A stretch of DNA of 64,000 bases from Gammaproteobacteria bacterium (GCA_021773365.1 JAJFKF010000063.1:3576-67575); one strand, 5' to 3'; counted from the first letter of the stretch, positions 17,963 through 44,572 are shown. The notes: generated by a model from the letters alone, not told the origin. Made by a program: numbers and translations.

Positions 17963-17963
17963 G

Positions 17964-21546: not shown

Positions 21547-21556
21547 GGCGCCGGCC

Positions 21557-22147
21557 TTGTTCCGCCACCGGTTGTTACTCGTGCCGGCGCTCGCCCTGAT
21601 CGCCGCCGGCTGCGCCACCGTATCGCCACCGCCCCCGGTCGACTGGAACGCCGTTGCCGTTGAACGCCAGGGCTGGGATCGCTGGGGCCTGTCAGGGCGG
21701 ACGGCAGTCACCGCGGGCCGGCAGGGCTGGAACGCATCACTGGATTGGCAGCAGGGCGGGGCGGAATCCGAACTGCGCCTGCACGGGCCCTTTGGCCTCG
21801 GTGCGCTGCGCGTCAACATCGACGGCGAGGCGGTGCAGATCCACACGGCAAAGGGAGAGGTGCTGGCAGGTGAGGACGCCCGCCTGATGCTCGAACACAC
21901 TTTAGGGGTCGACCTGCCGCTGGAGCACATGCGCTACTGGCTGCTCGCGGTGCCGGCGCCGAAGCTGCCTGCCTTCTCCCAGCTCGATGCGCAGGGGCGC
22001 CTGGCACAACTCGACCAGCGCGGCTGGCGGGTCACTTACCAAGAATATGGCTACAGCTCGGCCCATTGGCTGCCGGGGCGGGTGACGGCCGAGCGCGACG
22101 GGGTAAAGATCAAGGTAGTCGTGGATCGCTGGCGCCTGGACGACTGA
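21557..22147 (+). CDS. lolB: outer-membrane lipoprotein LolB
   Basis: In-frame TTG 21557 gives MFRHRLLLVPALALIAAGCATV (lipobox IAAGC). LolB-like blocks WGLSGRTAV...WQQ and GWRVTYQEY. Synteny with ispE. Confidence 0.8.
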   Translation: MFRHRLLLVPALALIAAGCATVSPPPPVDWNAVAVERQGWDRWGLSGRTAVTAGRQGWNASLDWQQGGAESELRLHGPFGLGALRVNIDGEAVQIHTAKGEVLAGEDARLMLEHTLGVDLPLEHMRYWLLAVPAPKLPAFSQLDAQGRLAQLDQRGWRVTYQEYGYSSAHWLPGRVTAERDGVKIKVVVDRWRLDD

Positions 22148-22148
22148 C

Positions 22149-23030: not shown

Positions 23031-23084
23031 GGCAACGGGTTTTGATCCCGTCATACGGAGGTTCGAATCCTCCCACCCCAGCCA
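23010..23084 (+). tRNA. tRNA-Gln (anticodon UUG)
   Basis: Cloverleaf folded by hand: acceptor TGGGGTG/CACCCCA, D arm GCC-AAGCGGTAA-GGC, anticodon arm ACGGG-TTTTGAT-CCCGT, T arm GGAGG-TTCGAAT-CCTCC, then G-CCA. Very similar to E. coli tRNA-Gln. Confidence 0.92.
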
Positions 23085-23099: not shown

Positions 23100-23438
23100 T
23101 CATGGGTCAAATGGCTCGGGCTCTTCCTGCATCCAGGCTGGAATGTCGCGTTTGCCATGAAGCACACGCCAAACGTCAATGTGGTCGGTGCGTTCCAGAT
23201 AGAAAACGAGATAAGGATAGCGGCCCAACGGGCAGAAGCGCAGGCCTGGAAGATTCAACTCACCCGCATATCGTAGGGAGCCGGCGGCCGGATGGCGGCT
23301 GATGAGGCTGTATGATTTCTCCAGCGCGTCAATAAAGCCCAACGCTGCGCTGGTTGCGCCCTCACCGAGGTAGTAGCCGACTGCATCTTCAGTATCCCGA
23401 TTGGCTTGGACGCGCGGGATGACTGGTTTGGATTTCAC
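23100..23438 (-). CDS. parE: ParE/RelE-family type II toxin
   Basis: 112 aa with RFCPLGRYPYLVFYLERTDHIDVWRVLHGKRDIPAW, typical of ParE. Overlaps the antitoxin stop by 4 nt. Confidence 0.85.
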   Translation of the reverse strand: MKSKPVIPRVQANRDTEDAVGYYLGEGATSAALGFIDALEKSYSLISRHPAAGSLRYAGELNLPGLRFCPLGRYPYLVFYLERTDHIDVWRVLHGKRDIPAWMQEEPEPFDP

Positions 23439-23683
23439 CGATGTGAACGAGGCTTGGCTGACTTCGCCTTTCGGCGCAGGCCATCGAAGTAGGTCGCGTT
23501 GATCGGTTTTGTTGGCGAAGATTTCGCGCCTGCAAGCAACCGCTCACGCAACTGCAACCGATCCTGATCCTTACGGATGAGTTCCCGAAGGTACTCGCTG
23601 CACGTGCCAAAGCCGCGGTGGCTTACCTGATCGTCGATAAAGTCCTTCATGGACTCCGGCAGGGAAATGTTCATCGTGGTCAT
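23435..23683 (-). CDS. parD: ParD-family (RHH) antitoxin
   Basis: 82 aa starting MTTMNISLPESMKDFIDDQVSHRGFGTCSEYLRELIRKDQDR, the ParD_antitoxin pattern. Lies upstream of parE. Confidence 0.85.
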   Translation of the reverse strand: MTTMNISLPESMKDFIDDQVSHRGFGTCSEYLRELIRKDQDRLQLRERLLAGAKSSPTKPINATYFDGLRRKAKSAKPRSHR

Positions 23684-23915
23684 GTCGAGACCGTAGCCTG
23701 CTTGGCAAAATTTGGCAATGATGGGTTTGCCGGACGCCTACCTGGCGCCAGCTTTGGTGACGGTGAAGGGTACTGGAGGGAAGTGGAGGGGATCAGCTGA
23801 TCAGCAAAATTGGTAACTTGTTGATTACGCTGGCAGCGAGGGACTATTACAGCACCCGTGGCCGGCCTGAACACGCGGGATGTGTGTCTTTCCGCCCCTC
23901 GCGCGTCTTATTGTA

Positions 23916-24440
23916 ATGGCCATGCCTATGCCCGAAATCAGCGACCTAACGCGGTTTCACCGAGACTACCGCCCCGGGTTGATGGCGTTTTTCTTGCGCC
24001 GGGTACGCAATCATGCAGAAGCCGAAGACCTGACGCAGGAGGTGTTCATACGGATCGCGCAGGGTGGCGGGGCCGCGATGAAATCCGCGGAAGCTTATAT
24101 CTTCCAGGTGGCGGCCAACTTGCTGCGGGACCGCGTGCGTCGCAACAAGGTGCGGGATCAGTACTTGGCGGAGCTCAAGCCCGGACTGGACGAGGAAAAC
24201 GAGCTGCTCGATCCCCAGCGCATCGTCGCAGGCAGAGAGGCGTTGGAGCGACTGTCGGAGGGGCTAAGGGATCTACCCGAGCGCACGCGGCTGATCTTCC
24301 TGCTGTTTCGCTACGAAAACTTGGACTATAAAACCATTGCCGACAGCCTTGGCATTTCCACCAGCGCGGTTGAAAAACATGTCTACCGCGCCATGGCGAA
24401 ACTGATTACGTGTACCGAGGGGGAATATGACAACCGCTGA
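23916..24440 (+). CDS. ECF (FecI-like) sigma factor (cassette 2)
   Basis: Track ORF 23880..24440. The likely start is one of the ATGs at 23916, 23922 or 23928. Region 2 (AEDLTQEVFIRIA) and region 4 (NLDYKTIADSLGISTSAVEKHVYRAM). Confidence 0.85.
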   Translation: MAMPMPEISDLTRFHRDYRPGLMAFFLRRVRNHAEAEDLTQEVFIRIAQGGGAAMKSAEAYIFQVAANLLRDRVRRNKVRDQYLAELKPGLDEENELLDPQRIVAGREALERLSEGLRDLPERTRLIFLLFRYENLDYKTIADSLGISTSAVEKHVYRAMAKLITCTEGEYDNR

Positions 24441-25383
24441 AGAGGAAGCCGGACGATGGTGCGTGAAGCTCGCTGGCGCAACCTTCGGGCCGGCAGAGCA
24501 GACCGAGTTCGATCGCTGGATGAATGCCGACCCGACCAATCGAGCGGTGTTCGATCGAGCGCTTGCAGTGTGGCAGGGGCTCTACGACATCGGCCGCTCG
24601 CCGGAGATCATCAGCCTGCGTGCGACAGCCCTGGAAACCATGCGGCGTACCTATGCGCGCAAGTGGTCGCGGCCGATGACCGGGAAGTGGCGGCAGATTT
24701 CGCTGGCTGCGTGCATTCTCGCGCTGGTGAGCGCCGGTGTGTTTCTTCATGGCCGCGCGCCCAGCTATCAGACTCAAATCGCCGAGCACCGCGCCGTGCT
24801 GCTGGAAGACGGTTCTCGTCTGTCGCTGGATGCAGCGACGAAGGTGGACGTGGACTACCGTGAGCGGCGGCGGGATGTGAGGCTGGTGGCAGGACGCGCC
24901 AAGTTCGATGTCGCGCGAGATGCGATGCGTCCGTTCATTGTCAAGGCAGGGGAGAAAACCATCACCGCCATCGGCACCGCTTTCAGCGTGGAAGTGCTGG
25001 AAACCGAAGTCCGCGTGATTCTGTACGAGGGCCGCGTGGCAGTGGATGACGGAGCGGGCGAACGGATATTGGAGCCTGGTAGTGAGCTGGTCGCAGAACG
25101 CGGCCAGCGCGAGTCGCGAATCGAACCGGTTGACCTGGCGCGGTCGCTCAGCTGGGAGTCGGGACAACTGAATTTCATGCGTGAGCCGCTGCGCCTCGCC
25201 GTTGAGCGGATCAATCGCTACAGTGGCAGTACCATTGTAGTCACCGATGAGACCACCGCCGCTATCCTCATTGATGGGGTCTTCAATACCGGGGATTCCG
25301 CCGCTTTTGTCGAGGCGGTGAGTACCGCCTACGCGGTGCAGGTGCGGGAACAAGATGGCCGGATTGTGCTGAGTGGAAAATAG
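24427..25383 (+). CDS. FecR-family anti-sigma/sensor (cassette 2)
   Basis: 318 aa with EEAGRWCVKL, one TM (ISLAACILALVSAGVFL), a GTAFSVEV FecR block and a DUF4974-like tail. Overlaps the sigma gene by 14 nt. Confidence 0.9.
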   Translation: MTTAEEEAGRWCVKLAGATFGPAEQTEFDRWMNADPTNRAVFDRALAVWQGLYDIGRSPEIISLRATALETMRRTYARKWSRPMTGKWRQISLAACILALVSAGVFLHGRAPSYQTQIAEHRAVLLEDGSRLSLDAATKVDVDYRERRRDVRLVAGRAKFDVARDAMRPFIVKAGEKTITAIGTAFSVEVLETEVRVILYEGRVAVDDGAGERILEPGSELVAERGQRESRIEPVDLARSLSWESGQLNFMREPLRLAVERINRYSGSTIVVTDETTAAILIDGVFNTGDSAAFVEAVSTAYAVQVREQDGRIVLSGK

Positions 25384-25460
25384 CATGTGAGACTTGGCGA
25401 ATCTCATGCGTCTTATCCCTTGATCGACACTCCGGCCAGCACACAACTTTGGGGAATCGC

Positions 25461-28400
25461 ATGTTGAAGTGGATTCGCAATCTGATTATCGGGACGTTAT
25501 TCGCTACCGCCGCTGCTGCCGCGCAGCACAACGTTTACAAGTTCGATATCCCAGCACAGACACTGGATTCTGCTCTGCGGGCCTTCGCCAAAACCTCGCG
25601 ACAGCAGATTCTGTTTGACGGGGAACTGGTCCATGAAAAGCGTAACAACGCGCTGGTGGGCGACTACCCGGTGGTGGAAGGATTGACGATTCTGCTTCAG
25701 GGGACTGGGCTCTCGGTCTCGCGGGGGGAGCATGGTGCGTTTGTGATCGCGGCGGCGATCAGCGCGAAAAAGAAAGTGATTCCAGCGACGGCCGGTGCTG
25801 CGGCCGGTGAGGCGCCCTTGCAGCACCTGGCGCTTGCCGATGCCGAAGGTCAATCGCAAGCCGCCGCGTCCACGGTGGAGACTCCGCCGGTCACCGAGGC
25901 GGATACTGCAGGTATTCCCGAGATTCTGGTCCAGGGCACACGCACGCTGAACACCGACATCAAGCGAACTGAGGATGCCGCCCAGCCCTATGTGGTCTTC
26001 GACCGCACGCAGATCGAACGCTCAATGTCCTCCAATCTGGAGGATTTTCTCAAGACGCGCCTGCCGATGAATACGGTGGAGGGCACGAACAGTCAGTCCG
26101 GCAGCTCCACCCGGGGCAACCAGAGTTCTATCAACTTACGCGGACTGGGCGCCAATCAGACGCTGATTCTGGTGGACGGCAAGCGCATGCCAAGCGTCGG
26201 CGGCGCCGGTGTTTTCAATCAACCAGATATCAACGGATTACCACTGGCAGCCATCGAGCGTATTGAAGTGCTGCCATCCACCGCTTCCGGCATCTACGGC
26301 GGTGGCGCCACTGGCGGTGTCATCAATATCATTACCCGGCAGTATCTCGGTATGGATCTGGGTGCGAGCTATGGCAACGCATTCGACAGCGACGTCGCCG
26401 AGCGCCGGTTGGAAGTCAGCGCCGGTTTCGACGTGGAGGGAGGCCGTACGCACGTGCTTGTTTCCGCCAGCCACACCGATTCCAACTCTCTGCTGGTGGG
26501 GGACAGGGATTTCACGGCCCAGGCCAGGGCGCGGCAGTTTGCCAACAATGCCTCAGCATTTTTCACCGCGGCCACTCCGCCTGTGGGGTACACCAGCAAC
26601 ATCCGCAGCCAGAATGGTTTGAACCTTGTTCTGGATAACGGCACGCAACTCAATTCGCCCCATACTTTTGTGCCTGTCGGCTATGCCGGTCCGGCTGCCG
26701 ACGGCGGCAGCGCACTGGTGGCCAATGCTGGCCGCTACAATCTGGAGTTGCCCCGGGATCTGCTGGGTGCTGAGCAGAGCCTGCTCAACAATCCGCAGGT
26801 CAGTTCCGCCTCGCTCAGCTTGCGGCGCGCATTCGGTGAGCGCATTGATGCCTATTCGGATTTTTCCTGGCTCGACAATCGCGGCCGGACGTATTTTGCC
26901 GGCGGTATCGCGACCAGCGTTACGCTCCCCGCCAATGCGCCTAACAATCCTTTCGATTCCGCCATCAATGTGAGTTTTCCGGCACCCGGCCTTTCCTTTC
27001 TGCGTGATACCGGCTCCGAGACGCTGCGCGGCACCGCGGGGCTGATTGTGCGCCTGCCGCGTCGATGGTCAGCCGCGGCCGACTATGTGTGGAGCCGCTC
27101 GCGATCTTCGTTCCTTTCGACGAGCCCAGCCCTCGGGGATCCGGATGGAGCAGCAGGTCCCGGTATTGCGGCAACGGCCGCACTGGCCAGCGGTGCGCTG
27201 AACGTTGTGCGTGACCTGAACGCTTTCCCCCTGGACTACACGCCCTACCTGATGCCGTCGCCGAATTTCATATTCGGTCCGGCAGATACCATCATGCAGG
27301 ATGCCACGTTGCGTCTTTCCGGGCCGGTCATGACATTGCCCGCCGGCCCCCTGACCCTGTCTGCCTTCATCGAGCGGCGCGAAGAGGAGGCGCGGACCAT
27401 GTTTCGCGATAGCATAACCGCTACAGGCGCCACGTTTTCTGTCCTGTGGCCTGGACGTTCGCAAACTGTCCAGTCTTACTATCTCGAGTCGCAGGTTCCG
27501 CTGATTTCAGCCACCCAAGGCTACCGGGCCGCGCGAACGTTCGATCTGCAGGCCTCGATCCGCCACGATAGGTATTTGACCGATTCGCCAAACCCCGCGG
27601 TTGCCGTCGTTCCGTCGCGGGCGGGACCGTATCCAGCGCTGACTTATGTCGACAATGAGGTGACGGCCACCAAGTTCACCCTCGGGTTGCGATATTCACC
27701 GGTCGAGGACGTGGTGCTGCGCGCCAGTTTCGGCACCGGTTTTCTGCCACCGTCCATCAACCAGATCGTGAGCATACCCGGGGGGATCTCCGGCGTTCAG
27801 ACCCTGATCGATCCGAAGCGCGGCGGGATTTCTGCCACCGTGCCGGCATTCTCGTTTGTCTCCGGCGGAAACGCTGGCCTGATCGCGGAGGATTCCGAAA
27901 GCTGGTCAGCGGGCGCGATCTTCACGCCGCGCTTGTTGCTGGGGCTGCGTGTTTCCCTGGACTACACTCGTATCACGAAGACCAATGAAATTGCCGATTT
28001 CGTATTCCAGGCATTGCTCGACCTGGAGGATTCGTTTCCCGGCCGGGTGACGCGCGCCGCAGTGACAGCGGGCGATGCCGCGCTGGGTTATACGGGTGGA
28101 GTCATCACCGAGATAGATATCAGCTTCGCTAACATCGCAGCGACGCGACTGGAAGCCTATGACATGCAAGCCGATTACACGCTGCCGACCACGCGGGCGG
28201 GTGATTTTCACTTTTTTGCCATCGCAACATGGCAACCGGAATTTGAACGCCAAGCTGCGGCAGGCGCGCCTTTCATCAATTTTGCGGATTTCAGCGGTGG
28301 CCCGCTTGAATGGAGAGCCAATGGTGGGGTGGACTGGGATCGCGGTGCGCTGACAGTGGGATGGAGTGCGCAGTACTACGATTCCTTCTTCAGCTATTCC

Positions 28401-28685
28401 GGCACGTCAGCCGGTGCGACGCAGGCCTCCGCGGTGCTGAACCAGGGTTCCGCCACGATCCCGGCGCAGATTTACCACGATATGTTCGCACGTTATCGTT
28501 TTGACTCTTCGCCGACACTGCTGGGCGGAATCTTCGCCAACAGCGAGGTTACGCTGGGCATCCAGAATCTGTTTAACGAGAAGCCACCCACCCTGGCAAC
28601 GACCGGGACTATCGGCGGCTACAGTAACTATGCCGACCCGCGCCTGCGACGTTACACGATCTCGGTACGGAAGAGTTTCAACTGA
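25461..28685 (+). CDS. TonB-dependent receptor with STN domain (cassette 2)
   Basis: ATG 25461 (MLKWIRNLIIGTLFATAAAAAQ). STN block FDIPAQTLDSALRAFAKTSRQQILF, plug INLRGLGANQTLILVDGKRM...IERIEVLP, C-terminal DPRLRRYTISVRKSF. Clear paralogue of receptors 1 and 3. Confidence 0.9.
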   Translation: MLKWIRNLIIGTLFATAAAAAQHNVYKFDIPAQTLDSALRAFAKTSRQQILFDGELVHEKRNNALVGDYPVVEGLTILLQGTGLSVSRGEHGAFVIAAAISAKKKVIPATAGAAAGEAPLQHLALADAEGQSQAAASTVETPPVTEADTAGIPEILVQGTRTLNTDIKRTEDAAQPYVVFDRTQIERSMSSNLEDFLKTRLPMNTVEGTNSQSGSSTRGNQSSINLRGLGANQTLILVDGKRMPSVGGAGVFNQPDINGLPLAAIERIEVLPSTASGIYGGGATGGVINIITRQYLGMDLGASYGNAFDSDVAERRLEVSAGFDVEGGRTHVLVSASHTDSNSLLVGDRDFTAQARARQFANNASAFFTAATPPVGYTSNIRSQNGLNLVLDNGTQLNSPHTFVPVGYAGPAADGGSALVANAGRYNLELPRDLLGAEQSLLNNPQVSSASLSLRRAFGERIDAYSDFSWLDNRGRTYFAGGIATSVTLPANAPNNPFDSAINVSFPAPGLSFLRDTGSETLRGTAGLIVRLPRRWSAAADYVWSRSRSSFLSTSPALGDPDGAAGPGIAATAALASGALNVVRDLNAFPLDYTPYLMPSPNFIFGPADTIMQDATLRLSGPVMTLPAGPLTLSAFIERREEEARTMFRDSITATGATFSVLWPGRSQTVQSYYLESQVPLISATQGYRAARTFDLQASIRHDRYLTDSPNPAVAVVPSRAGPYPALTYVDNEVTATKFTLGLRYSPVEDVVLRASFGTGFLPPSINQIVSIPGGISGVQTLIDPKRGGISATVPAFSFVSGGNAGLIAEDSESWSAGAIFTPRLLLGLRVSLDYTRITKTNEIADFVFQALLDLEDSFPGRVTRAAVTAGDAALGYTGGVITEIDISFANIAATRLEAYDMQADYTLPTTRAGDFHFFAIATWQPEFERQAAAGAPFINFADFSGGPLEWRANGGVDWDRGALTVGWSAQYYDSFFSYSGTSAGATQASAVLNQGSATIPAQIYHDMFARYRFDSSPTLLGGIFANSEVTLGIQNLFNEKPPTLATTGTIGGYSNYADPRLRRYTISVRKSFN

Positions 28686-34384: not shown

Positions 34385-34939
34385 TCAAGCCTCACGCAAA
34401 TTCTCCGCCAGCATGTTGCAAAACAGTGCGCCCTGTTCGATGGCGTCATCGAGCGCGATGTGAGTATGAGGGTGCGCGTCGAACCAGTGCCTGGGCATGC
34501 CGCCCTTGGTGCTCTTGCGGTAGTCCTTTCTGAGCAGCGCCATGGCATAGGTCTTGATGTCCAGCGCGGAAAAGCTGAACGGGCTCTCGCCCGCGAAGCG
34601 CATCAGGTACCAGTACACGAACAGGAAATCGAAGCCGGCTGGATAGCCGACGAATACAGGTTTGCCAGGAAGGGCCTTGAGCCAGGCGACATACCGCGGC
34701 ATCGCGACCTCTGGCGCCTCTGGATTCTGCCGGCAGGCGGTCCAGGCCTCGGGGTGCTTCGCCCACCATTCCGCTGTCTTCGGATCCGCCGTCGCGCCCG
34801 GCAGGGTTTCCAGGTTCGCGCTGAAGGTGCCGAGCAACTCCTTTCCAGCTGTATAGGCTGCCGACCCGAAGCTCAGCATGGAGTTCGGCCCGGGGATTGG
34901 GCCGTCGGCCTCGACATCGGTGCTCACGTAGATTTCCAT
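34385..34939 (-). CDS. DEDDh-type (DnaQ/RNase T-like) 3'-5' exonuclease
   Basis: ATG 34939 ([14 protein letters not shown]) preceded by GAGGAAG. Exo I DVEADG, Exo [13 protein letters not shown], Exo III HIALDDA. Confidence 0.7.
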
Positions 34940-35007
34940 TGTCTCTTCCTCATAGTGCATGGATTCGGGGGTTAGAAGAAAATGACTAATCCCTGTCAGT
35001 GATCTCA

Positions 35008-35052
35008 TGATAAAGTATCACCACTTATAAATATGTGGGTATAAATTATCAC
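35008..35052 (+). promoter_or_regulatory. repeated ATAAAnTATCAC boxes upstream of abiEi (candidate AbiEi operator)
   Basis: TGATAAAGTATCAC at 35008-35021 (contains the palindrome TGATA-N3-TATCA) and GTATAAATTATCAC at 35039-35052, 31 bp apart, in the AT-rich divergent intergenic region. Confidence 0.3.
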
Positions 35053-35658
35053 ATGGTGCCTTCTAAAAAGCCCCTCCAGGAGATATCCGCTTCCTCGCGG
35101 AAGAAAGGCGTTCTGCGCTCGCGCGATCTCGCCCAGCAGGGTATTCATCCCCAGACCGTCAGCCGTCTTGTGCAGCAGGGCGAACTGACCCGCGCCGGCC
35201 GTGGCCGTTATCTGCTGCCAAAGAGTGAGCCCTCCGAGAACATCGGCCTCGCGCTGGCAGCCGTGGCAGCGCCCCAGGCTGTCGTCTGCCTGCTTTCAGC
35301 GCTTCGCTTTCATAACCTGGGCACGCAAGCTCCGCATGAAGTATGGATCGCGGTCGAGCGCCGGAACACACGCCCGCGGGTCGACTATCCGCCGGTCCGC
35401 GTCATGCGTTTTTCAGGCAGGGCATTCACTTTCGGAATTGAACGGTACGAGATCGACGGCATTCAGGTGAAAATCTACTCTGCGCCGAAAGCGGTCGCCG
35501 ATTGCTTTAAGTTTCGCAACAAGATAGGTCTTGACGTGGCGCTCGAAGCGCTGCGCGAAGGGCTGGTGGATAAGCAGTTTACGCGTGACGAGCTATGGGC
35601 AGCGGCGAAGGTGTGCCGGGTCACGACCGTCATTCGTCCTTATCTTGAAGTGCTGTAG
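35053..35658 (+). CDS. abiEi: AbiEi-family antitoxin/transcriptional regulator (type IV TA)
   Basis: ATG 35053 (MVPSKKPLQEI...); GTG 35035 is an alternative. N-terminal wHTH (GVLRSRDLAQQGIHPQTVSRLVQQGELTRAGRGRY) and C-terminal AbiEi_4-like region. Immediately upstream of abiEii. Confidence 0.8.
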   Translation: MVPSKKPLQEISASSRKKGVLRSRDLAQQGIHPQTVSRLVQQGELTRAGRGRYLLPKSEPSENIGLALAAVAAPQAVVCLLSALRFHNLGTQAPHEVWIAVERRNTRPRVDYPPVRVMRFSGRAFTFGIERYEIDGIQVKIYSAPKAVADCFKFRNKIGLDVALEALREGLVDKQFTRDELWAAAKVCRVTTVIRPYLEVL

Positions 35659-35677
35659 GCATTCAGGGAACGCGCTA

Positions 35678-36592
35678 GTGGCCAAAGACAAACCCCGCAA
35701 CATGCCCGCGTCCATTCGACAGCGGTTGCTGAACTATGGCGTCGCTGCCAAACTGGACCCAAATCTGACTTTGCTCTGGTACGCATTCGAGCGGCTGTTA
35801 TATCGGCTGTCGATCTCGCCATACGGTGACCGTTTTGTAGTTAAAGGGGCGATGCTCTTTCGAGTATGGGGTGGGCCAGAATTTCGGGCGACGAAGGATT
35901 TGGATTTGCTGGGCGCTGTACGCCAGGAGAGCGAGAGCCTCAAAGAAGCCTTTGCCGTAATCTGCAGGCAGCCTGTCGAAGATGATGGTTTGACCTTTGA
36001 TCCGGCGGGTATGCGTATCAGCGAGATCCGGATCAAAGAGGAATATGGCGGCTTGCGCGTGCTGCTGACCGCGAGGCTGGGGACGGCATTAATTCCGTTG
36101 CAGGTCGACGTCGGGTTTGGCGACGCGGTTACGCCGGCGGCAACTCATGAGGAATTTCCTTCCATGCTGGGCCAGCCTCGCGCACGAATCCGCGCTTATC
36201 CGCAGGAAACAGTCATTGCCGAAAAATATCAGGCGATGGTGGAGCGTGGTATGGCCAACACGCGGATCAAGGACTACTACGATATCTGGTATCTGTCGCG
36301 CCACTTCCAGTTTCATGGGTCTGTACTGGCGTCAGCAATTCGGGCGACTTTCAAGCGAAGAAATATGATGGTGCCTGAAGAACTGCCTATCGGTCTGACG
36401 TCAGCCTATGCCAAAGACACCGCGCATCAGCGGCAATGGAGGGCGTTTGTCTCCAGAATCGGAGCTGACTCGAGATTGGAATTTGAGGAAGTCCTGGAAG
36501 CCGTCGCTGTATTCATTCTGGCGCCTTCGCGCGCCGCTGCAGCAGGGGCCACTGTCACTATCGAGTGGCGTGACGGTGCGTGGCACGGCTAA
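35678..36592 (+). CDS. abiEii: AbiEii/DUF1814 nucleotidyltransferase toxin (type IV TA)
   Basis: Start at GTG 35678 or ATG 35702. FVVKGAMLFRVWGGPEFRATKDLDLLG is the characteristic NTase motif of AbiEii. Confidence 0.85.
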   Translation: MAKDKPRNMPASIRQRLLNYGVAAKLDPNLTLLWYAFERLLYRLSISPYGDRFVVKGAMLFRVWGGPEFRATKDLDLLGAVRQESESLKEAFAVICRQPVEDDGLTFDPAGMRISEIRIKEEYGGLRVLLTARLGTALIPLQVDVGFGDAVTPAATHEEFPSMLGQPRARIRAYPQETVIAEKYQAMVERGMANTRIKDYYDIWYLSRHFQFHGSVLASAIRATFKRRNMMVPEELPIGLTSAYAKDTAHQRQWRAFVSRIGADSRLEFEEVLEAVAVFILAPSRAAAAGATVTIEWRDGAWHG

Positions 36593-36759
36593 CCCGAAGG
36601 AAACGCCCGTGGAGGTGCCTCAATCCTAGTACGCACCTTGGCGCCAGCTATGTGTATCTGGGCGGAATGGAGGGGGCACATAGCAGCGTAGAGGGTTCTC
36701 GATGCCGAGCACCGGATTCGATTCTTTCGGATTCGCATGTCCGGCAATGAATCTCAATA

Positions 36760-37506
36760 TCACAGCAATTTGGCATCCAGATACTGAAGGGTTGTGCGGG
36801 CCAGGTTGATAAACAGAATGGCGTCAGCGTCACCGAGCAGTTGTTTGTTAGGGTGCGCGAGACTACCGCGATTGCGAGCGGGGTTCATGGCGTCAATCAC
36901 GGAGGCAAGCCCCAGCAGCGCTTTCCCGACGGTGTCCTGGTGCGGATCGGAATTCCGCAGGCGAGTATGTTTTTGGCGGAGTGCCTTGAACAAAGACGTC
37001 ATGGGGGCATCTGCAGGCACTGGGATTGACTCGGTCTCACAAGCCGCCTTGATATAGGCGTGTAACGCGGTGTGCACGCGGTCGATTGCGCTGGAGGGGC
37101 CGCTGGAGACGAGCAGGAGTTTAGCGTCAGCCAGGACACGCTCGAGAAGCTCGCTGGTCAACCGCAAATCGGTTGCATCGACTGCTGCTGTCTTATTGCA
37201 TCGCAGCGTAAGCGCTTTTAGTTGCTTGGTCGCTACAGCGGTTCGGGATACCGCTGAATCGACTGGATATTTTTTGGCGACGCCTCGCAGGATGGCCGCC
37301 TGCATCCGCCCGTCCGCGGAGCTCAAAATCTTAAGGAAGCGTTCCCGCGTCGTGCCTTCCAGATCGTCCGGGTTGATGTCGAGATCGCAGAATCCGGGGT
37401 AGAACTCGCGATGGGTCCGATAGGTAAAATCACCCAGATAACCCTCAGCAACGCCAATGTAGGTGTTCATGACCCAGTAGATCTCGCTCTGCTTGAGTTC
37501 TCCCAT
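36760..37506 (-). CDS. abortive-infection family protein with C-terminal Abi_C-like domain
   Basis: 248 aa. The C-terminal block AMNPARNRGSLAHPNKQLLGDADAILFINLARTTLQYLDAKL fits the Abi_C pattern as I remember it. The N-terminal domain is unassigned. Confidence 0.65.
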   Translation of the reverse strand: MGELKQSEIYWVMNTYIGVAEGYLGDFTYRTHREFYPGFCDLDINPDDLEGTTRERFLKILSSADGRMQAAILRGVAKKYPVDSAVSRTAVATKQLKALTLRCNKTAAVDATDLRLTSELLERVLADAKLLLVSSGPSSAIDRVHTALHAYIKAACETESIPVPADAPMTSLFKALRQKHTRLRNSDPHQDTVGKALLGLASVIDAMNPARNRGSLAHPNKQLLGDADAILFINLARTTLQYLDAKLL

Positions 37507-37616
37507 CGATCTGCTCTGTGGCTATCTGCGGATACTTGGCCAGGCTGCCTTAACTTTGGGCTCCGTCTCATGGCATGATATCGGAGTACGGATTCCAATG
37601 AAAAGAACGCCGACCC

Positions 37617-40600
37617 ATGGGGGGGATGATGGATCAGAACGGCATGCCAGCGGCAGAGTCATCAGTTCTGACTGAAGCGCTGCCGCTCACCGATAAGATC
37701 GCGCGGGCGCGGCTCGAGCTTCTGGATCTTTCCGCCCGAAATCGCCTGATCAGCACACCGCGCAGTGGCAAGGCACGGACCGTCGAAGTCGTGCACGAAC
37801 TGGCGGCTGCGATGTACCAGACGCTCGTCATTGACGAGAAACGGTTTACATTTTCCCCGGCGCGCGACACCGATCAGAAGACGAAATCAGGCGCTAGCAC
37901 TGATACCGAGGATGAGTTACAGACTGAGGATCCGCTCACACAGCCCGACGCTGAGCTAGATAAGCAGGGTGATCCCCCGGCGTGTTGGGACGGGCAGCTG
38001 TCGACGCGTATGACGTCCGCCGGTTTGCAGAAACGTCTGTTGGATCTCTATATCGACGCCCGGACTCTTCAGGAAGAGCAGGGCGTCAACATTCTGTATC
38101 TGGCCATTGGTTATCTCAAATGGCGAGACACCACGACGCCGGATGTAGATCGTTATGCGCCGTTGGTGCTGGTGCCAGTGGCGCTGGAACGCAGCACGGC
38201 TGGGGAGAAGTTCCATCTACGCTGGTCGGGTGAAGATATCGAAGCGAATCTCTCGCTACAGGCGTTTCTCGCGCGAAATTTTGGTTTGAGACTTCCCGAT
38301 ATCGATGACTTTGAAGCGTTGGTTATTGACGACTACATGGCGAACGTGGAGACGATGGTCGAGGGCAAGGAGCATTGGGCTGTGCTGCGTAATGACGCCG
38401 TGCTGGGTCTGTTCTCGTTTGCCAAATTCATGATGTACCGGGATCTGGACCCAGAACAGTGGAAAGACGCTGGAGGTTTCGAGGCGATTCCAACGTTGCG
38501 GGGTGTCGTCTCAGACGGCTTTCCTCAGCGTAATCTGATCGATGACGATACGAACGTCGATGCGGTGATTCAGCCAGTCGATATGCTCCATGTGCTGGAT
38601 AGCGATAGTTCGCAGTCGCTCGTGGTTCATGATGCTCGCCAGGGCGCGCATCTGCTCGTTCAGGGTCCGCCAGGTACGGGCAAGTCGCAGACAATTGCCA
38701 ACATCATTGCCGCAGCGGTAGCTGACGGGAAGAGAGTGTTGTTCGTGGCGGAGAAGATGGCTGCGCTCGAGGTCGTGAAGCGTCGCCTGGACGAAGTTGG
38801 TATTGGCGTGGCATGTCTAGAATTGCATAGCAACAAGGCGAAAAAGCGGGCGGTACTGGAGGAGCTCAAGCGGACGTGGCAGCTGGCTCCCCCTCGTTGT
38901 GAGTCCGGCGAGTCGATCGTGTCGCAGCTGGGGACAGCTCGTGATCGTCTGAACGATCATGCGATTCGCCTCCACGAGCGTCATCTGCCTTCCGAGCTGA
39001 CAGCCTATGAGGTGATCGCTGAACTGGTGAGGCTGAAACGGGCCGGTCACAGCACTGGTCGGCTCAAGCTGGATCAGCCCGCGCGATGGCGGCCACACGA
39101 AAAGACCGAGCGGCAATCCATCGTGCAGGATCTCTCACAACGTATCAAGGAGATGGGTACGCCCGTCAACCACGCTTGGTCGGGAGTCGGTAACGATGCG
39201 CTGCTGCCGAATGATCGCGATCGCCTCGTCGATTCCATTGGAAAACTGAGCGCCAATCTCGGATCGTGGCTCACTTTCCTGCGCTCCTTGTCCAGTCAGC
39301 TAGGTCTTGAACCGCCGACACGCTTCTGCGAGGTGTCGGATTTACAGGCGCGCGCCACGCTTCTCGTCGAGGCGCCGGGAATTGGGCCGGACGCATTTCT
39401 ATCTCCGCTGTGGAATGATCCTCAGCAGGCGCGTGGAATTATTGAGGCGCTGGAATTGGCACAGAGCCTCAGTCAAGAAGTACAGGCATTTGCCGCATTC
39501 GATGTTCTGTCGCTGAATTGGTCTTCTGCCGCATCGGCTATTGCTGAGCTGCCGGGCTCGTTTACGTGGGAAGGGGAGCTGGCCGACGTTATTGTCTTGC
39601 ACAGTCTGCTTGAGCGAAGTCAAGCCGATATTCGGCGACTGGTTCAGTTGTTTGGTGAGCAAACGCCAATCACGCTTGATATGGTCCAGCGATTGCTTGC
39701 GATGGCCGAGCGGGCCGAGAGTGTGCCGGAGCTGCAGCGCGAAGCGCTTGTGTCGCACATCTGGGACCGAGGCATTGAGTCCATCGTTGAGCTAATTGAA
39801 AACGTTAAGAAAGTGCAGCACGCCCGAGAGGTTCTTGCGTCGGTGTTTGGCGATTTCGCCTGGACCACTGATCTCATAGAGGTTCGCAACCATCTCGCGA
39901 CGCTGGGTGGTAACTGGTTGCGCTTCTTCAATGGGAACTGGCGTCGATCTCACCGCTTGGTCAAATCGCTACTCGCGACTTCCGTGAAACTAAGCAGTGA
40001 AGAGTTACTCCGCGCGCTCGATCTGCTGCTGACTGCGCGGGCTTCGCAGGATCTGCTGCGAGCACGCGAGACCCAGGCACGTGAAGCCTTTGGGCAGAGC
40101 TGGGACCACGATCGATCAGACGTAGGGTTCCTGCAAAGTGTAGTTGCGTGGATGCGCGAGCTGCGGCCGCTGGGCTTCGAAGCGCGGCAGCGCGTGGCAG
40201 ATCTTGCGGACCGGGAGTTGGCGGCAGAGTTGAACCGTCGTTTAGGGCCTGTCTTGAAGCAAATGCGGGAGTTGTTGGTCCCGATAAATGAAGGCTGCAT
40301 TGCGGCTCGAAAGTTTCCCTGGGGTCAGGAGACCTTGCCGGGCCGTATTCCTCTGACGGCGCTAGTGGAAAAAGTTGCTATTTGGAAAGATGTGCTGGAT
40401 CAATGCGGCGGGCTGACTTGCGTCCCAGCGCGGACGGTTGACGATCTAATAGACCGCATTGTGCTGACGCGGCGAGCACAGAAGTCGCTCGAATACTCAA
40501 AGAGTCAGGAAGAAGCGGGCCGCTCCACCTTCGGTCTGCTCTGGCATGGCCTGGACTCTCAATATGAGACGCTGCATCAGGCTGTTGAGTGGATATCTGC

Positions 40601-43193
40601 GCATGCCGTGCTTAGAGAGTTAGCCTCGCGAACGCGCAATCCTGGGGCATTGCTCGTGGCTGCTGAGAAAGCGGTGAGCTACGTCGATCGCTTCGAGCCG
40701 CGCATTCAAGGAATTTTCGCCAGACTTCGTTTCCAAGGGAACAAAGCACTCCCTGCCGAAGTAAGTGAAGCGTCTCTCGAGACTCTGCTGCATCAGTTTG
40801 TGCGCTGGCATGAACATGCCGAGGGGCTCAAGGAATGGGTCGCGTTTGCCGCACAAGCCAATGAGGGCCGTCGAAAGGGACTGAGTCAGCTGGTCGACGC
40901 CCTCGATCAGGGAGTTCTGGCTCCGGAATTAGCCGCCGCCGCGTTTGATCTGGCGTACTACGAGGCGATCCTGGCTGAGCGCATTGCGGTGTGGCCCGAT
41001 CTCGCGAAGTTCGATGGACTAAAGCACTCACAGTACGTCAGTGCGTTCGGAGTTCTTGATCGCCGACGTATCAGGTATTCCGTCCAGCAGGTGTTAAAAG
41101 CCCATCATGGACAACTTCCTCGGGCGGGGGGCGCCGCTGGACCGACAGGAATTTTGCGTGCGGAGATGGAGCGACGCCGTAAACATATGCCCATTAGGCA
41201 GCTGATGCAGCGCTGCCATGCGGCCGTCCAGGCACTCAAGCCGGTGTTTATGATGAGTCCGCTGTCAGTCGCGCAGTTCCTACCGCCTGGAGTTGTGCGG
41301 TTCGACCTGCTCGTGATTGATGAGGCGAGCCAAGTGCAGCCGGTCGATGCATTGGGCTCGATTGCGCGTGCCAAGCAGCTGGTCATCGTCGGTGACGAGC
41401 GGCAGCTACCACCGACGCGGTTCTTCTCGAGATTGCTGGACGACGGAAGGGACGACGATGAGCAGGGCGCCTCGACTGCGGATATTGAAAGCATTCTCGG
41501 GCTGTGTCGCGCCCGTGGACTGCCGCAGCGCATGCTGCGTTGGCACTATCGCAGTCGTCATCAATCGCTGATCGCGGTCTCAAACAGCCAGTTCTACGAC
41601 AACAAGCTATTCATCGTGCCGAGCCCGTATAACGCTGAAGCCGGCATGGGGCTGCGCCTTCGGCACATGCCGGAGAATACATACGATCGGGGTGAGCAAA
41701 GTATCAATGTTGGCGAAGCCAGAGCCGTCGCCGCGGCCGTCTTGGAGCACGCTCGAGCGACACCGCAAATGAGCCTGGGTGTCGCCACGTTTTCCACCAA
41801 GCAGCGGCGGGCAATTATGGATGAGCTCGAGCTTCTTCGCCGTCAGCGGCCCGACAGCGAAACGTTCTTCGGTGCTCACGAAGATGAGCCGTTCTTTGTC
41901 AAGAACTTGGAGAACGTGCAGGGTGATGAACGGGATGTCATCTTCATTTCGGTCGGCTATGGCCGGGATGCGCAAGGACGCGTAGCGATGTCTTTCGGGC
42001 CATTAAATAGCGAAGGTGGGGAACGGCGGTTGAACGTATTGATAAGCCGTGCCAAACGTCGTTGCGAGATCTTCTCATCTATCAATGATGAAGATATCGA
42101 TCTCGAGCGCGCTAGAGGCAAGGGCGTCGCAGCCTTCAAATGTTTCCTTCGCTATGCGCGCACTGGTCAGCTATCGATCACGAACGAACATGAGGACGAA
42201 TTGCGAAATGCATTCGCTGATCAGGTGGCTGAGGCACTGAAGGAACGCGGCTACAACGTACATTTGAGGATCGGAACCGCCGGGTGCTTTGTGGATTTGG
42301 GTGTGGTGGATACGGAGTTACCCGGACGCTATGTGCTCGGTATCGAGTGTGATGGCAGTTCGTATCGGAAGGCGCGAAGTGCACGAGATCGGGACCGATT
42401 GCGCAGATATGTGCTGGAAGATAAGGGCTGGATCCTGCATCGTATCTGGATCTCGGATTGGTTTCATCGTCCGCAGGCCGAGTTGGAGCGCCTGCTCGCG
42501 GCCATCGGGAAGGCTCGCAGCGAAGTCGATGCCAGAGCGGAGCCGTTTGCCGCCCCGTCCAGAGCCGCACCCGTCGAAGTGGCGACGATTCAGCGAGGCG
42601 AGTTCGTCGCGGTCGGAATGGCGCCGGTCGATGAATCGTCGACGGTAGAGCCGTACGAAGAAGCTGCCTTTCGCACATCGCACAGTCGGCGTGAATTGCA
42701 CGAGCTCCCAAGCTCGATGTTGGCCAGTATCGTGCGGCAGGTGGTTAACATCGAGGGCCCGGTGCACCGCGCGGAAGTAGTTGCACGCATCCGATCTATT
42801 TGGGGTCTACAGCGAACTGGAGGGCGAATTCAGGCGGCGATCGATGTGGCCATCTCCCATGCTCATGAGAAAGGAGAAATCGCAATTGCCGATGAAAGCT
42901 TCCTGTGTCTGCCGGCTGGCTCTATCAAAGTCCGTGACCGCAGCAACGTTTGCTCGCTTGGTCTGAGGCGACCCGAGTACCTCCCGCCTAAGGAAATCGA
43001 CTTGGCGCTGCGGGAGACAATTATTGAAAATTTGGGCGCTACGCTCGAAGAGCTGGTCCTTTGTGTTTCGCGGAAGTTTGGCTATCGAAGCACTAGTGCC
43101 CAGCTCCGCGAGATCATTGAGGCTCGCGTGCACCGCTTGATCGACGAAGGATCCTTTCAGTGGCAGGGAGAGCACCTGACGATTATCGCGTAA
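37617..43193 (+). CDS. 1858-aa multidomain protein: DUF4011-like N-terminus, Upf1-like SF1 helicase (AAA_11/AAA_12), Vsr/DUF559-like endonuclease fold, DUF3320-like C-terminus
   Basis: ELLDLSARNRLIS and GVNILYLAIGYLKW (DUF4011-like). Walker A GPPGTGKS at 38664-38687. LVIDEASQ at about 41313. GDERQLPPT, WHYRSRHQSLI, QGDERDVIFISVGY and RRLNVLISRAKRR motifs. FVDLGV...GIECDGSSYRKARSARDRDRLRRYVLEDKGWILHRIWISDWF around 42339. DUF3320-like tail. Confidence 0.88.
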   Translation: MGGMMDQNGMPAAESSVLTEALPLTDKIARARLELLDLSARNRLISTPRSGKARTVEVVHELAAAMYQTLVIDEKRFTFSPARDTDQKTKSGASTDTEDELQTEDPLTQPDAELDKQGDPPACWDGQLSTRMTSAGLQKRLLDLYIDARTLQEEQGVNILYLAIGYLKWRDTTTPDVDRYAPLVLVPVALERSTAGEKFHLRWSGEDIEANLSLQAFLARNFGLRLPDIDDFEALVIDDYMANVETMVEGKEHWAVLRNDAVLGLFSFAKFMMYRDLDPEQWKDAGGFEAIPTLRGVVSDGFPQRNLIDDDTNVDAVIQPVDMLHVLDSDSSQSLVVHDARQGAHLLVQGPPGTGKSQTIANIIAAAVADGKRVLFVAEKMAALEVVKRRLDEVGIGVACLELHSNKAKKRAVLEELKRTWQLAPPRCESGESIVSQLGTARDRLNDHAIRLHERHLPSELTAYEVIAELVRLKRAGHSTGRLKLDQPARWRPHEKTERQSIVQDLSQRIKEMGTPVNHAWSGVGNDALLPNDRDRLVDSIGKLSANLGSWLTFLRSLSSQLGLEPPTRFCEVSDLQARATLLVEAPGIGPDAFLSPLWNDPQQARGIIEALELAQSLSQEVQAFAAFDVLSLNWSSAASAIAELPGSFTWEGELADVIVLHSLLERSQADIRRLVQLFGEQTPITLDMVQRLLAMAERAESVPELQREALVSHIWDRGIESIVELIENVKKVQHAREVLASVFGDFAWTTDLIEVRNHLATLGGNWLRFFNGNWRRSHRLVKSLLATSVKLSSEELLRALDLLLTARASQDLLRARETQAREAFGQSWDHDRSDVGFLQSVVAWMRELRPLGFEARQRVADLADRELAAELNRRLGPVLKQMRELLVPINEGCIAARKFPWGQETLPGRIPLTALVEKVAIWKDVLDQCGGLTCVPARTVDDLIDRIVLTRRAQKSLEYSKSQEEAGRSTFGLLWHGLDSQYETLHQAVEWISAHAVLRELASRTRNPGALLVAAEKAVSYVDRFEPRIQGIFARLRFQGNKALPAEVSEASLETLLHQFVRWHEHAEGLKEWVAFAAQANEGRRKGLSQLVDALDQGVLAPELAAAAFDLAYYEAILAERIAVWPDLAKFDGLKHSQYVSAFGVLDRRRIRYSVQQVLKAHHGQLPRAGGAAGPTGILRAEMERRRKHMPIRQLMQRCHAAVQALKPVFMMSPLSVAQFLPPGVVRFDLLVIDEASQVQPVDALGSIARAKQLVIVGDERQLPPTRFFSRLLDDGRDDDEQGASTADIESILGLCRARGLPQRMLRWHYRSRHQSLIAVSNSQFYDNKLFIVPSPYNAEAGMGLRLRHMPENTYDRGEQSINVGEARAVAAAVLEHARATPQMSLGVATFSTKQRRAIMDELELLRRQRPDSETFFGAHEDEPFFVKNLENVQGDERDVIFISVGYGRDAQGRVAMSFGPLNSEGGERRLNVLISRAKRRCEIFSSINDEDIDLERARGKGVAAFKCFLRYARTGQLSITNEHEDELRNAFADQVAEALKERGYNVHLRIGTAGCFVDLGVVDTELPGRYVLGIECDGSSYRKARSARDRDRLRRYVLEDKGWILHRIWISDWFHRPQAELERLLAAIGKARSEVDARAEPFAAPSRAAPVEVATIQRGEFVAVGMAPVDESSTVEPYEEAAFRTSHSRRELHELPSSMLASIVRQVVNIEGPVHRAEVVARIRSIWGLQRTGGRIQAAIDVAISHAHEKGEIAIADESFLCLPAGSIKVRDRSNVCSLGLRRPEYLPPKEIDLALRETIIENLGATLEELVLCVSRKFGYRSTSAQLREIIEARVHRLIDEGSFQWQGEHLTIIA

Positions 43194-43300
43194 TTCGCGC
43201 CAATCGTACAGCGTCGCTCTCGCGTTCAATTCGGATTGCTGCGGCTTAGTGGCTCCACAGCGGCTATTAGGCTCTATAGGCTGTTTACTTGGGAACTAAC

Positions 43301-43912
43301 ATGAGCATCTTTGTCCAGTTTAATCGAAAATCTATAGACGATCGCCAGATCGACACCCTTATTGGACTGAGCCATGGTTTGCTGGCGGACGGCAAGATCG
43401 ATGGCTTAGAGGCGCAGTTTCTTTTCGAATGGCTGATACGGAGCCGTCAGTCCACTGACCACCCCATCATCGTCAACCTGCTGTCGAAGGTGAGCTCCAT
43501 GCTGAGCGATGGCATTCTGGATGACGAAGAGACCCAGGAATTGTTGAGTGTCCTGCGTCAAATCACTGGTGAGCCATCCGAATTTGGCGAGATAGCGAAA
43601 AGTGCCTCGTTGCCGTTCTGCGAGCCTGCGCCAACGGTCACCTTCCAAGGCAGGACATTTCTCTTTACGGGGACCTGCGCCTATGGAACCCGCAAACAAT
43701 GCCAGGACGTCACCGAAAAACTCAGCGGCGTGTGCGCCAAGGGCGTGAGTAAGACGTTGAACTATCTTGTCCTGGGAACCTACGTTACCGATAGCTGGAT
43801 ACACGAAACCTTTGGCAGGAAGATTGAAAAGGCGATGCAGTATCGAAATGACGGTGCGCCGATCGCGATCATTTCCGAGACGCATTGGGCGAATGCTGGT
43901 GGGATTCGTTGA
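43301..43912 (+). CDS. TerB-like N-terminal domain fused to a C-terminal BRCT domain
   Basis: ATG 43301 (the track starts at TTG 43289). Two aDGxI(D)xxExxxL repeats (LADGKIDGLEAQFLFEWL; LSDGILDDEETQELLSVL). BRCT-like VTFQGRTFLFTGTCAYGTRKQCQDVTEKLSGVCAKGVSKTLNYLVLG...W. Confidence 0.6.
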   Translation: MSIFVQFNRKSIDDRQIDTLIGLSHGLLADGKIDGLEAQFLFEWLIRSRQSTDHPIIVNLLSKVSSMLSDGILDDEETQELLSVLRQITGEPSEFGEIAKSASLPFCEPAPTVTFQGRTFLFTGTCAYGTRKQCQDVTEKLSGVCAKGVSKTLNYLVLGTYVTDSWIHETFGRKIEKAMQYRNDGAPIAIISETHWANAGGIR

Positions 43913-44070: not shown

Positions 44071-44250
44071 ATGCAACCTATCAACCAGGCCCGCGCAGAT
44101 TCATTTCTGCGTGCTCCTGTGGGTTTCACAACCATTCTCGGCAAGCTGATCACGCTGCCGGCGCTGCCGCTGGTGTGGTGGCGCATGTTGCTGGTGGCGC
44201 TGGCGTTGTTGCTGATTCCCAGCGTGTGGTCCGGATTGCGCTCCACCGCC
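44071..44250 (+). pseudogene. N-terminal fragment of a DMT/EamA-type transporter gene
   Basis: MQPINQARADSFLRAPVGFTTILGKLITLPALPLVWWRMLLVALALLLIPSVW looks like the first two TM helices of an EamA-family protein. The frame then continues into Arg/Gly/Ala-rich sequence with no hydrophobic (TM-like) segments up to 44499. Confidence 0.3.
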
Positions 44251-44572
44251 GGCGCGAGGGTGCCACGCAACCGGAGTTGCTGGGCACCAGCGAGAGTCAC
44301 GCGGTGGTCGATTGAGGCCGCCGCCGGGGAGCTGTTATCAGCCTTTTCTGGCGCAGATTGGCGGGCAACAGCGGCCGCTGTGGTAGGATTCGCGCCCCGG
44401 TTTGGGGCGGAATTCCGGGTTGCCGCAGGATATGCAGCCCAACGCGTGGCCACGTGGGGCGGCGGCGGGGGCTCCGGGTGCCGCGTGACCGATAACTAAC
44501 TGATTTATATTATATTTTTAGGGCTCGAGTCCGCTTGCCTCACTCGAGTTTGCAGACCTGTCGAGAGGGATT

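Follow-up and report, generated by a model that had tools for sequence, protein, structure and literature searches.

A probable mobile anti-phage cassette of a gammaproteobacterium: a ProA/Hhe-like helicase-nuclease with a co-inherited HEPN partner and an autonomous BRCT add-on

Introduction

Does a giant helicase gene with a small gene close behind it make up a new two-gene defence system, or is it a known kind of effector in changeable company? The question is raised by a 64,000-nucleotide (nt) stretch of DNA from a Gammaproteobacteria bacterium (GCA_021773365.1, JAJFKF010000063.1:3576-67575), referred to here as the window. Positions 37,617-43,912 hold a gene for a helicase-nuclease of 1858 amino acids (aa) and, on the same strand, a gene for a 203-aa protein with a helical N-terminal part and a BRCT domain. 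A preliminary description, made from the sequence alone, presented the two as an uncharacterised defence module in which a helicase paired with a TerB/BRCT protein was the defining architecture. The comparisons described below give a different answer. It is rather likely that window positions 36727-43912 make up a mobile anti-phage cassette of three genes, with an effector of a known kind at its core. Its third member is a divergent gene of the AbiJ type (Pfam Abi_C) with a HEPN signature, and the small BRCT gene is an autonomous add-on.

The Transferred Block and its HEPN Partner

The closest relative of the window locus is L172 (loci and proteins of the comparison carry L and P numbers). A blastn search of L172 against the window aligns the two colinearly in one piece, 7192 nt long and 82.9% identical. 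The common block starts 33 nt past the Abi_C stop and ends at the stop codon of the small gene, and its flanks are unrelated: L172 has pyocin-activator-like genes there, the window AbiE and prs. Because there is a single block with unrelated flanks, the transfer unit in this lineage is Abi_C, the helicase and the small gene together. The features of the locus are collected in Table 1.

Table 1. Positions of the cassette, its genes and their domains, and the adjoining AbiE pair, counted from the first nucleotide of the window
Feature	Position	Strand	Basis and remarks
Three-gene cassette (Abi_C/HEPN, helicase-nuclease, BRCT gene)	36727-43912		one block common with closest relative L172 (blastn)
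AbiJ-type HEPN protein (Pfam Abi_C), 248 aa	36760-37506	-	divergent from helicase; Abi_C (PF14355) E = 5.4e-09, 36.5 bits against a cut-off of 24
Divergent intergenic region between Abi_C and helicase, 110 nt	37507-37616		sequence read; presumed common promoter region
ProA/Hhe-like helicase-nuclease, 1858 aa	37617-43193	+	open reading frame, Pfam, PADLOC, NCBIfam; start maybe M5 at 37629
DUF4011 N-terminal domain, residues 34-218	37716-38270	+	Pfam 1.5e-39
Walker A GPPGTGKS, residues 350-357	38664-38687	+	translation; invariant in 13 relatives
Insertion of ~800 aa between helicase motifs I and II	38880-41300	+	no Pfam family; least conserved part
Walker B DEAS, residues 1235-1238, then VGDERQLPP	41319-41330	+	translation; columns D1235, E1236, A1237, S1238 and G1259-P1266 invariant
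AAA_12, C-terminal superfamily 1 core, residues 1302-1487	41520-42077	+	Pfam 1.8e-11; PADLOC MkoA and MkoC match same core
MTES_1575 Vsr-like endonuclease, residues 1533-1630	42213-42506	+	Pfam 2.3e-31; D1560, E1577, D1579 invariant
DUF3320 (winged-helix-turn-helix-like), residues 1693-1739	42693-42833	+	Pfam 5.8e-15
Four-helix + BRCT protein, 203 aa, autonomous mobile module	43301-43912	+	open reading frame; starts 107 nt after helicase stop
N-terminal four-helix domain, residues 9-89, two aDGxhDxxE motifs	43325-43567	+	model; TerB-like at motif level only
BRCT domain, residues ~115-200, predicted RFC1/LigA/PARP1 class	43643-43900	+	Foldseek 2ebu, 2k7f, 7u1a, LigA; Pfam in relatives
AbiEi/AbiEii toxin-antitoxin defence pair	35035-36592	+	Pfam and PADLOC; neighbour outside cassette, absent from L172 block

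Relatives of the helicase were compared at 80 loci, on contigs of one genome per species with 10-kb flanks. Three genes on either side of each helicase were clustered, and loci, metagenomic relatives included, were ranked by global helicase identity. No neighbour was universal over the 80 genome loci, and the only clade-specific partner was Abi_C. This gene of about 250 aa, divergent and homologous to the Abi_C gene of the window, lies directly upstream of the helicase in all 10 independent loci where helicase identity is at least 53% (L172, L173/L174, L175, L176/L177, L012-L016 and L033). The identity of Abi_C to the window protein tracks that of the helicase across loci: 85% and 83%, respectively, in L172, 58% and 63% in L173/L174, 54% and 58% in L175, 56% and 57% in L176/L177, and 46-54% and 53-55% in L012-L016 and L033. 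In the metagenomic relatives the presence of Abi_C was confirmed by gene calls with Pfam matches. Below 50% helicase identity Abi_C was undetected, except for three distant homologues found with a hidden Markov model (HMM) in L027, L038 and L067. The small gene is present in one of the ten close relatives, L172.

Two motifs of Abi_C are invariant, DRxHT and RNxxS[LF]AH (the HEPN Rx4-6H signature), the second of them in 13 homologues, and the Abi_C neighbour at the P0128 locus also matches the HEPN family PF05168, weakly. With these motifs invariant and the gene so linked, the clade encodes HEPN, helicase, Vsr-like nuclease and a winged helix-turn-helix domain (wHTH) as two divergent genes. As judged from linkage and parallel divergence, Abi_C is a co-inherited partner of this helicase clade. 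The preliminary description had recognised both AbiE and Abi_C beside the helicase, in agreement with Pfam and PADLOC, but had taken Abi_C for a separate neighbour.

The Helicase-Nuclease

The giant protein carries all the parts that had been read from its translation. The open reading frame of 1858 aa, the Walker A motif at nt 38664, the DEAS box (at nt 41319), DUF4011, the superfamily 1 (SF1) motifs, the Vsr-like block and the DUF3320 tail of the preliminary description all held up when examined with Pfam HMMs and by translation. Pfam also finds AAA_11. Walker A and DEAS are about 885 aa apart, and from residue ~420 to ~1228 the Pfam scan gave no match. The ATPase, helicase and nuclease motif residues are all invariant when 13 relatives of 45-66% identity are aligned. 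The Vsr-like block reads FVDLGV...GIECDGSSY...GWILHRIWISDWF, and DUF3320 has been described as a wHTH (PMC3710099). In the public record (P0121) the protein begins at M5 and has 1854 aa.

Family searches place this protein among known defence genes. Assignments by PADLOC are matches to its profile HMMs, for which eight proteins from 35-46 kb were scanned. The helicase matches PDC-S37 with E = 0 and 1799.6 bits in three stretches, the best covering profile positions 646-1543 of 1550. Hhe is matched at 4e-218, and MkoA at 6.7e-29 over residues 1228-1481, which is the shared SF1 core only. Against the NCBIfam model NF058533, 'anti-phage protein ProA', the helicase scores 1499.4 bits where the cut-off is 1500, a shortfall of 0.6 bit; this match is also in three stretches, the best aligning residues 937-1824 with profile positions 996-1902 of 1903. 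The sister protein P0131 from Pseudoxanthomonas scores 1492.3 bits, and relatives from Yersinia, Atlantibacter, Pseudomonas floridensis and Microvirga, 42-48% identical to the window protein, reach 1530-1645 bits, above the cut-off. The score against the NCBIfam Hhe model, NF042953, is 989.9 bits, under its cut-off of 2000. The family as a whole is very large. Scores were obtained for more than 7995 clusters (90% identity), most of them named 'DUF3320 domain-containing protein', with members in Xanthomonas, Stenotrophomonas, Lysobacter, Yersinia and others.

On the strength of these matches the giant protein is a catalogued kind of defence gene (ProA/PDC-S37/Hhe-like) and not an uncharacterised one. 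The preliminary description was right that it is a defence-type helicase-nuclease in a defence cluster, as the family matches and the AbiE and Abi_C neighbours bear out. It had also granted that assignment by an existing tool would make the module real but not novel; existing tools do assign the helicase, so the claim of novelty falls. A full-text literature search returned no relevant paper on the origin of the name 'ProA', a literature search for 'PDC-S37' gave zero mentions, and searches by Pfam accession or domain name gave nothing new. When E. coli genomes were searched by blastn for a PGAP-annotated ProA, only Hhe matched, over about 215 nt.

Relation to Known Systems

Full-length likeness is greatest to ProA and PDC-S37, which share the size of about 1850-1900 aa and the series DUF4011, split SF1 helicase, MTES_1575 and DUF3320. 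The window protein and its Xanthomonadales-type clade differ from ProA in scoring just under the equivalog cut-off, and in the obligatorily linked divergent Abi_C/HEPN gene, which was not detected at the ProA-scoring loci examined. PDC-S37 is catalogued as a single gene.

Hhe, from the system of Gao et al. 2020, has the same domain order, with DUF4011, SF1 helicase and Vsr-like nuclease and an intact active site. The window protein is 35-38% identical to E. coli Hhe in the N-terminal third (DUF4011 and Walker A) and the C-terminal third (helicase core and Vsr-like domain), and the GIECDG of its nuclease aligns with an identical GIECDG in the Vsr-like block of Hhe. In contrast, the middle ~500 aa cannot be aligned, and the insertion between motifs I and II gives no alignment with Hhe. 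Hhe also stands by itself, with neither Abi_C nor a BRCT gene beside it, and the score of the window protein lies far under the 2000-bit cut-off. Hhe has been validated as a single-gene system against lambda, T3, T7 and PhiV-1, and its nuclease-domain mutation E1731A abolishes defence (bioRxiv 10.1101/2022.06.16.496414).

Mokosh is set apart by the absence of any full-length MkoA or MkoC match (RNA helicase with phospholipase D (PLD) or other Mokosh-specific domains). An earlier precedent is found in HEPN-containing giants that carry in a single polypeptide an SF-I helicase, a Vsr restriction endonuclease (MTES_1575) and a wHTH (DUF3320), described in 2013 (PMC3710099). The activities are the same as those predicted for the window set: HEPN RNase, SF1 helicase, Vsr-like DNase and wHTH. 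The HEPN of the window is, however, a separate divergent AbiJ-type (Abi_C) protein and not an N-terminal Abi2/Swt1-type domain, and the window set has no transglutaminase domain.

The Small BRCT Protein

The small protein lies on the same strand, just downstream of the helicase gene, as had been described; the measured gap is 107 nt. Its AlphaFold model (predicted local distance difference test score, pLDDT, 76.7) has four helices at residues 15-89. A disordered linker joins them to residues 119-200, which take up the BRCT fold (beta-alpha-beta-beta-alpha-beta-alpha) with pLDDT mostly 83-94. Foldseek matches the BRCT part with probability 1.0 to BRCT domains of LigA, RFC1, PARP1 and XRCC1, and the NCBIfam models LigA and PRK06195 match the same C-terminal part. 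With Pfam BRCT (PF00533) the window protein itself scores 16.8 bits, under the gathering score of 21.3; a BRCT match is found in 22 of 22 family members (E<=1, best 5.9e-6). The BRCT-like module of the preliminary description is upheld by the fold match and by these relatives.

RFC1, LigA and PARP1 BRCTs are the best structural matches to the domain, which the model predicts is of the DNA-end-binding RFC1/LigA class. It differs from them in its setting: a free-standing 203-aa protein with a unique four-helix N-terminus, and no ligase or clamp loader. The conserved spacing of T123-G124 ... R131 is the one found in the 5'-phosphate-binding T-G...R motif of RFC1 BRCT, and is offered as a lead only. 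The sensing of phosphoproteins or of the envelope, which had been proposed for the small protein, finds no support from a BRCT domain of the predicted DNA-end-binding class.

The N-terminal domain is less easily placed. Both aDGxhDxxE motifs are present throughout the family, and D30, G31, E37, D70, D74 and E77 are invariant. The repeats to which the preliminary description drew attention are real, but they support the name TerB at motif level only: TerB (PF05099) matches 4 of 11 members, at best with E = 0.0043, and DUF533 matches 4 of 11, at best with 0.0017, both sub-threshold. A profile search of the Protein Data Bank for support of TerB returned nothing relevant. When the N-terminal domain was modelled in isolation (pLDDT 81), the matches of a fold search were all to four-helix bundles, generic or designed, at E>=0.5. 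In 21 of 22 members there is a weak PADLOC match to the single-gene candidate PDC-S48, and the family is unnamed in NCBIfam and in the defence databases and curated families checked.

Distribution of the Small Gene

The small family is large and travels widely. Its proteins, of about 203 aa, are 65-70% identical across Gammaproteobacteria and Desulfobacterota in unrelated contexts. When 1.84 billion cluster representatives (50% identity) were searched with a profile, at least 544 matched at E<=1e-30 and at least 2126 at E<=1e-10.

Some of its neighbours are defence genes. The small gene adjoins Shango (SngC) in four loci (L003, L100, L112 and L124), and in L092 it follows a CBASS pair of patatin and CD-NTase. 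Others are OLD/GajA-like ATPases, ThsB-TIR genes and CI-like repressors. Further copies lie behind glmS or gcvP, and others adjoin integrases and transposases. Temperate phages carry it as well, and none of these copies is accompanied by a helicase. In Vibrio phage K139 (L179 3168-4073) the homologue is the orf2 gene in the cI-orf2-glo-int operon of lysogeny; that of Pseudomonas phage PG1 comes after an S24 repressor (repressor-hyp-BRCT), and that of phage Lodos after the integrase; the temperate-phage homologues besides that of K139 lie at L181 3549-4094 and L180 1691-2344. Given this placement in lysogeny modules, expression in lysogens is to be expected. On such a distribution the small gene is, in most of its occurrences, an autonomous and widely mobile module and not a dedicated partner of the helicase. 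A literature search on BRCT, prophages and defence found no relevant paper.

A K+-channel-like gene (about 257 aa; Ion_trans/Ion_trans_2) is another recurrent neighbour, seen beside the small gene in 5-6 independent loci (L100 9171-9953, L104 903-1676, L105 10585-11358, L112 16702-17457, L115 3372-3755 and L146 5846-6550). It is sometimes on the same strand, overlapping or nearly abutting.

Shango (SngA TerB, SngB ATPase, SngC helicase; PMC10250203) resembles the window pair in combining a helicase with a TerB-like element, and the small family adjoins four of its operons. In contrast, no SngA, SngB or SngC match was found among the eight proteins from 35-46 kb, the window helicase is SF1 with a fused nuclease and not a DEAD/DEAH superfamily 2 enzyme, and the TerB match of the small protein is sub-threshold. 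We therefore rejected the small gene as a component of Shango, since it has no Sng match and mostly occurs where there is no Shango.

Helicase and Small Gene Together

How often the two genes meet was counted from both sides. On the helicase side, tblastn with the small protein found it in one of the 80 loci and not in the other 79. That locus is L050 (9980-16096), from Caulobacter sp. RHG1, where the helicase has an extra C-terminal Schlafen/AlbA_2 domain and a small-gene homologue of 43% identity starts about 20 nt after its stop. On the side of the small gene, 80 metagenome loci were collected, 75 of them independent and 44 informative (flanked by 1.5 kb or more on at least one side). A DUF4011-helicase-MTES_1575 gene lies next to the small gene in 2 of these 44 and is absent from 42. 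In L145 a giant of 2182 aa ends 158 nt upstream of the small gene; in L146 a giant of 1949 aa starts about 300 nt downstream. Because each gene is so regularly absent from the loci of the other, neither needs the other, and the pair that had been taken as the defining architecture does not hold as such.

The meetings that do occur are spread over four independent helicase-MTES_1575 lineages with differing accessory domains: the window clade, L050, L145 and L146. Among 150 of the 3764 profile-search matches, fusions of the small family were also seen. P0345 (L182 6001-12129, on a 26-kb contig) is a continuous open reading frame of 2042 aa with AAA_11, AAA_12, MTES_1575, DUF3320 and the small-protein module at residues 1843-2034. 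Its domain order is the gene order of the window, and it joins the products of the two window genes as a Rosetta-stone fusion. Other fusions of the module include further BRCT repeats (P0294) and, in P0376 (352 aa), an N-terminal HIRAN. HIRAN is a DNA 3'-end-binding domain, and its fusion may be a sign that DNA ends or stalled forks are recognised. Some functional tie of the BRCT module to helicase-MTES_1575 proteins is likely because of the co-transferred block, the three further adjacent lineages and the one C-terminal fusion; it would be a facultative tie.

Proposed Mechanism and Alternatives

In the proposed scheme, the core is the giant, which is made up of DUF4011, an SF1 (Upf1/DNA2-like) helicase split by the insertion of ~800 aa, the Vsr-like MTES_1575 nuclease and the DUF3320 winged helix. 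By analogy with Hhe, it would recognise invading DNA, translocate with the use of ATP, and nick or cleave by means of its Vsr-like domain. Abi_C would add a second effector: as the biology of HEPN proteins suggests (PMC3710099), it would be an RNase that serves for back-up or abortive infection. The BRCT protein, to judge by its fold class and fusions, may bind DNA ends or nicks. Where linked to a helicase, the BRCT module would direct or license the helicase-nuclease, most likely as an accessory. It has been captured repeatedly by helicase-MTES_1575 proteins, as a downstream gene here and as a C-terminal fusion elsewhere.

Several points weigh against this account. The directing role given to the BRCT module is pure inference, and the fusion P0345 comes from a single metagenome contig. 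Most ProA-scoring relatives have no Abi_C and PADLOC lists PDC-S37 as a single-gene candidate, for which reasons the HEPN partner may be dispensable. Finally, a large, related DUF4011 gene is core and non-mobile in every P. aeruginosa isolate (PMC10250203), which would fit a housekeeping function equally. That gene, together with a second core gene, a 'conserved small hypothetical gene', flanks the right side of the P. aeruginosa defence hotspot cDHS1 (PMC10250203).

A more general form of the idea is possible and is put forward tentatively. The four-helix + BRCT protein could be a portable sensor or adaptor of DNA ends and nicks, standing alone in lysogeny operons and plugged, as a neighbour or a C-terminal fusion, into ProA/Hhe-like and Shango effectors, which it would direct or license at the ends or replication intermediates of phage DNA. 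Abi_C-ProA would then be a 'split' HEPN-helicase-nuclease system of which catalogues list one gene alone.

That the BRCT gene is unrelated in function to the helicase is on the unlikely side. It would then serve prophages and islands in its own right (superinfection exclusion, DNA-damage sensing or regulation) and merely land in defence islands. The lysogeny operons of K139 and PG1 suit this well, as do its positions at island edges by integrases and transposases or after glmS or gcvP, its mixed neighbours, and the weak PDC-S48 similarity in 21 of 22 members. However, genes of the helicase-MTES_1575 type are not among the commonest island genes, yet at least four independent adjacencies and a fusion are found, and the block shared with L172 ends exactly at the stop codon of the small gene.

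It is quite improbable that the helicase-nuclease and the TerB/BRCT protein are a dedicated, obligate two-gene system, with the small protein as sensor or adaptor and the giant as effector. The arrangement in the window invites such a reading, with both genes on one strand, a gap of 107 nt, and co-transfer in the L172 block. The small gene also adjoins the helicase in three other lineages with gaps of 20-300 nt, and the fusion has the same order. In contrast, 79 of 80 helicase relatives, 9 of the 10 closest, and 42 of the 44 informative small-gene loci have only one of the two genes, and copies of the small gene from distant phyla keep 65-70% identity in unrelated settings, while those of temperate phages stand alone.

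A genome-maintenance or repair helicase-nuclease, not immune and with defence labels carried over from distant relatives, would account for the very large family, near-universal in Xanthomonas, Stenotrophomonas and Lysobacter, for the core DUF4011 gene of all P. aeruginosa isolates (PMC10250203) and for scores under both NCBIfam equivalog cut-offs, but is very hard to credit for a mobile cassette with unrelated flanks in two hosts, which adjoins AbiE in the window and Wadjet in L175, has an Abi-type HEPN protein as partner and has an experimentally validated relative in Hhe.

Surroundings of the Cassette

The DNA from 35 to 44 kb has a GC content of 0.55-0.59, and its flanks 0.62-0.69 (about 0.65), in accord with the AT-richer DNA of the preliminary description. 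The tRNA-Gln gene occupies 23010-23084, and prs/L25 start at 44573 on the downstream side. Island borders were sought in the window as an integrase and as a repeat of the tRNA-Gln 3'-end (attR), and neither was found. A consensus promoter scan of 37507-37616 gave one weak minus-strand site (37604-37575), not above chance, and promoter and terminator scans between the cassette genes likewise gave nothing above chance.

Several other genes of the window are of interest. Directly after tRNA-Gln, at 23100-23683, are a ParE-toxin gene (112 aa) and an adjoining 82-aa open reading frame as presumed antitoxin, followed by a cluster of extracytoplasmic function (ECF) sigma factor and TonB-dependent receptor (23880-28685). 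Beside AbiE, a 207-aa open reading frame (34385-35008, minus strand) has a weak match, 7.7e-4 and under the cut-off, to Rv2179c-like 3'-5' exoribonuclease; it may be a further member of the defence island. Between the small gene and prs the public record has a 142-aa gene (44071-44499, plus strand), which is outside the L172 block and matched no Pfam, NCBIfam or PADLOC family. In L175 a complete Wadjet operon (JetA-D; 15644-22295) is found directly downstream of an Abi_C and helicase pair 58% identical to that of the window.

Significance

The helicase alone adds little, as tools already flag it. Of more interest are the variant architecture of HEPN partner, ProA-like helicase and BRCT add-on, and the unnamed four-helix + BRCT family. 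To our knowledge, free-standing BRCT proteins are essentially unexplored in bacterial immunity. Strict inheritance of a HEPN gene, which defence catalogues omit, would change how PDC-S37/ProA loci are delimited and tested, if it is confirmed. The small BRCT family is large and strongly conserved, is found on prophages and genomic islands, and recurs beside or fused to helicase effectors; this too would be new, if confirmed. A DNA-end-binding accessory common to unrelated immune systems would be a useful concept and, if true, would represent a new class of shared module.

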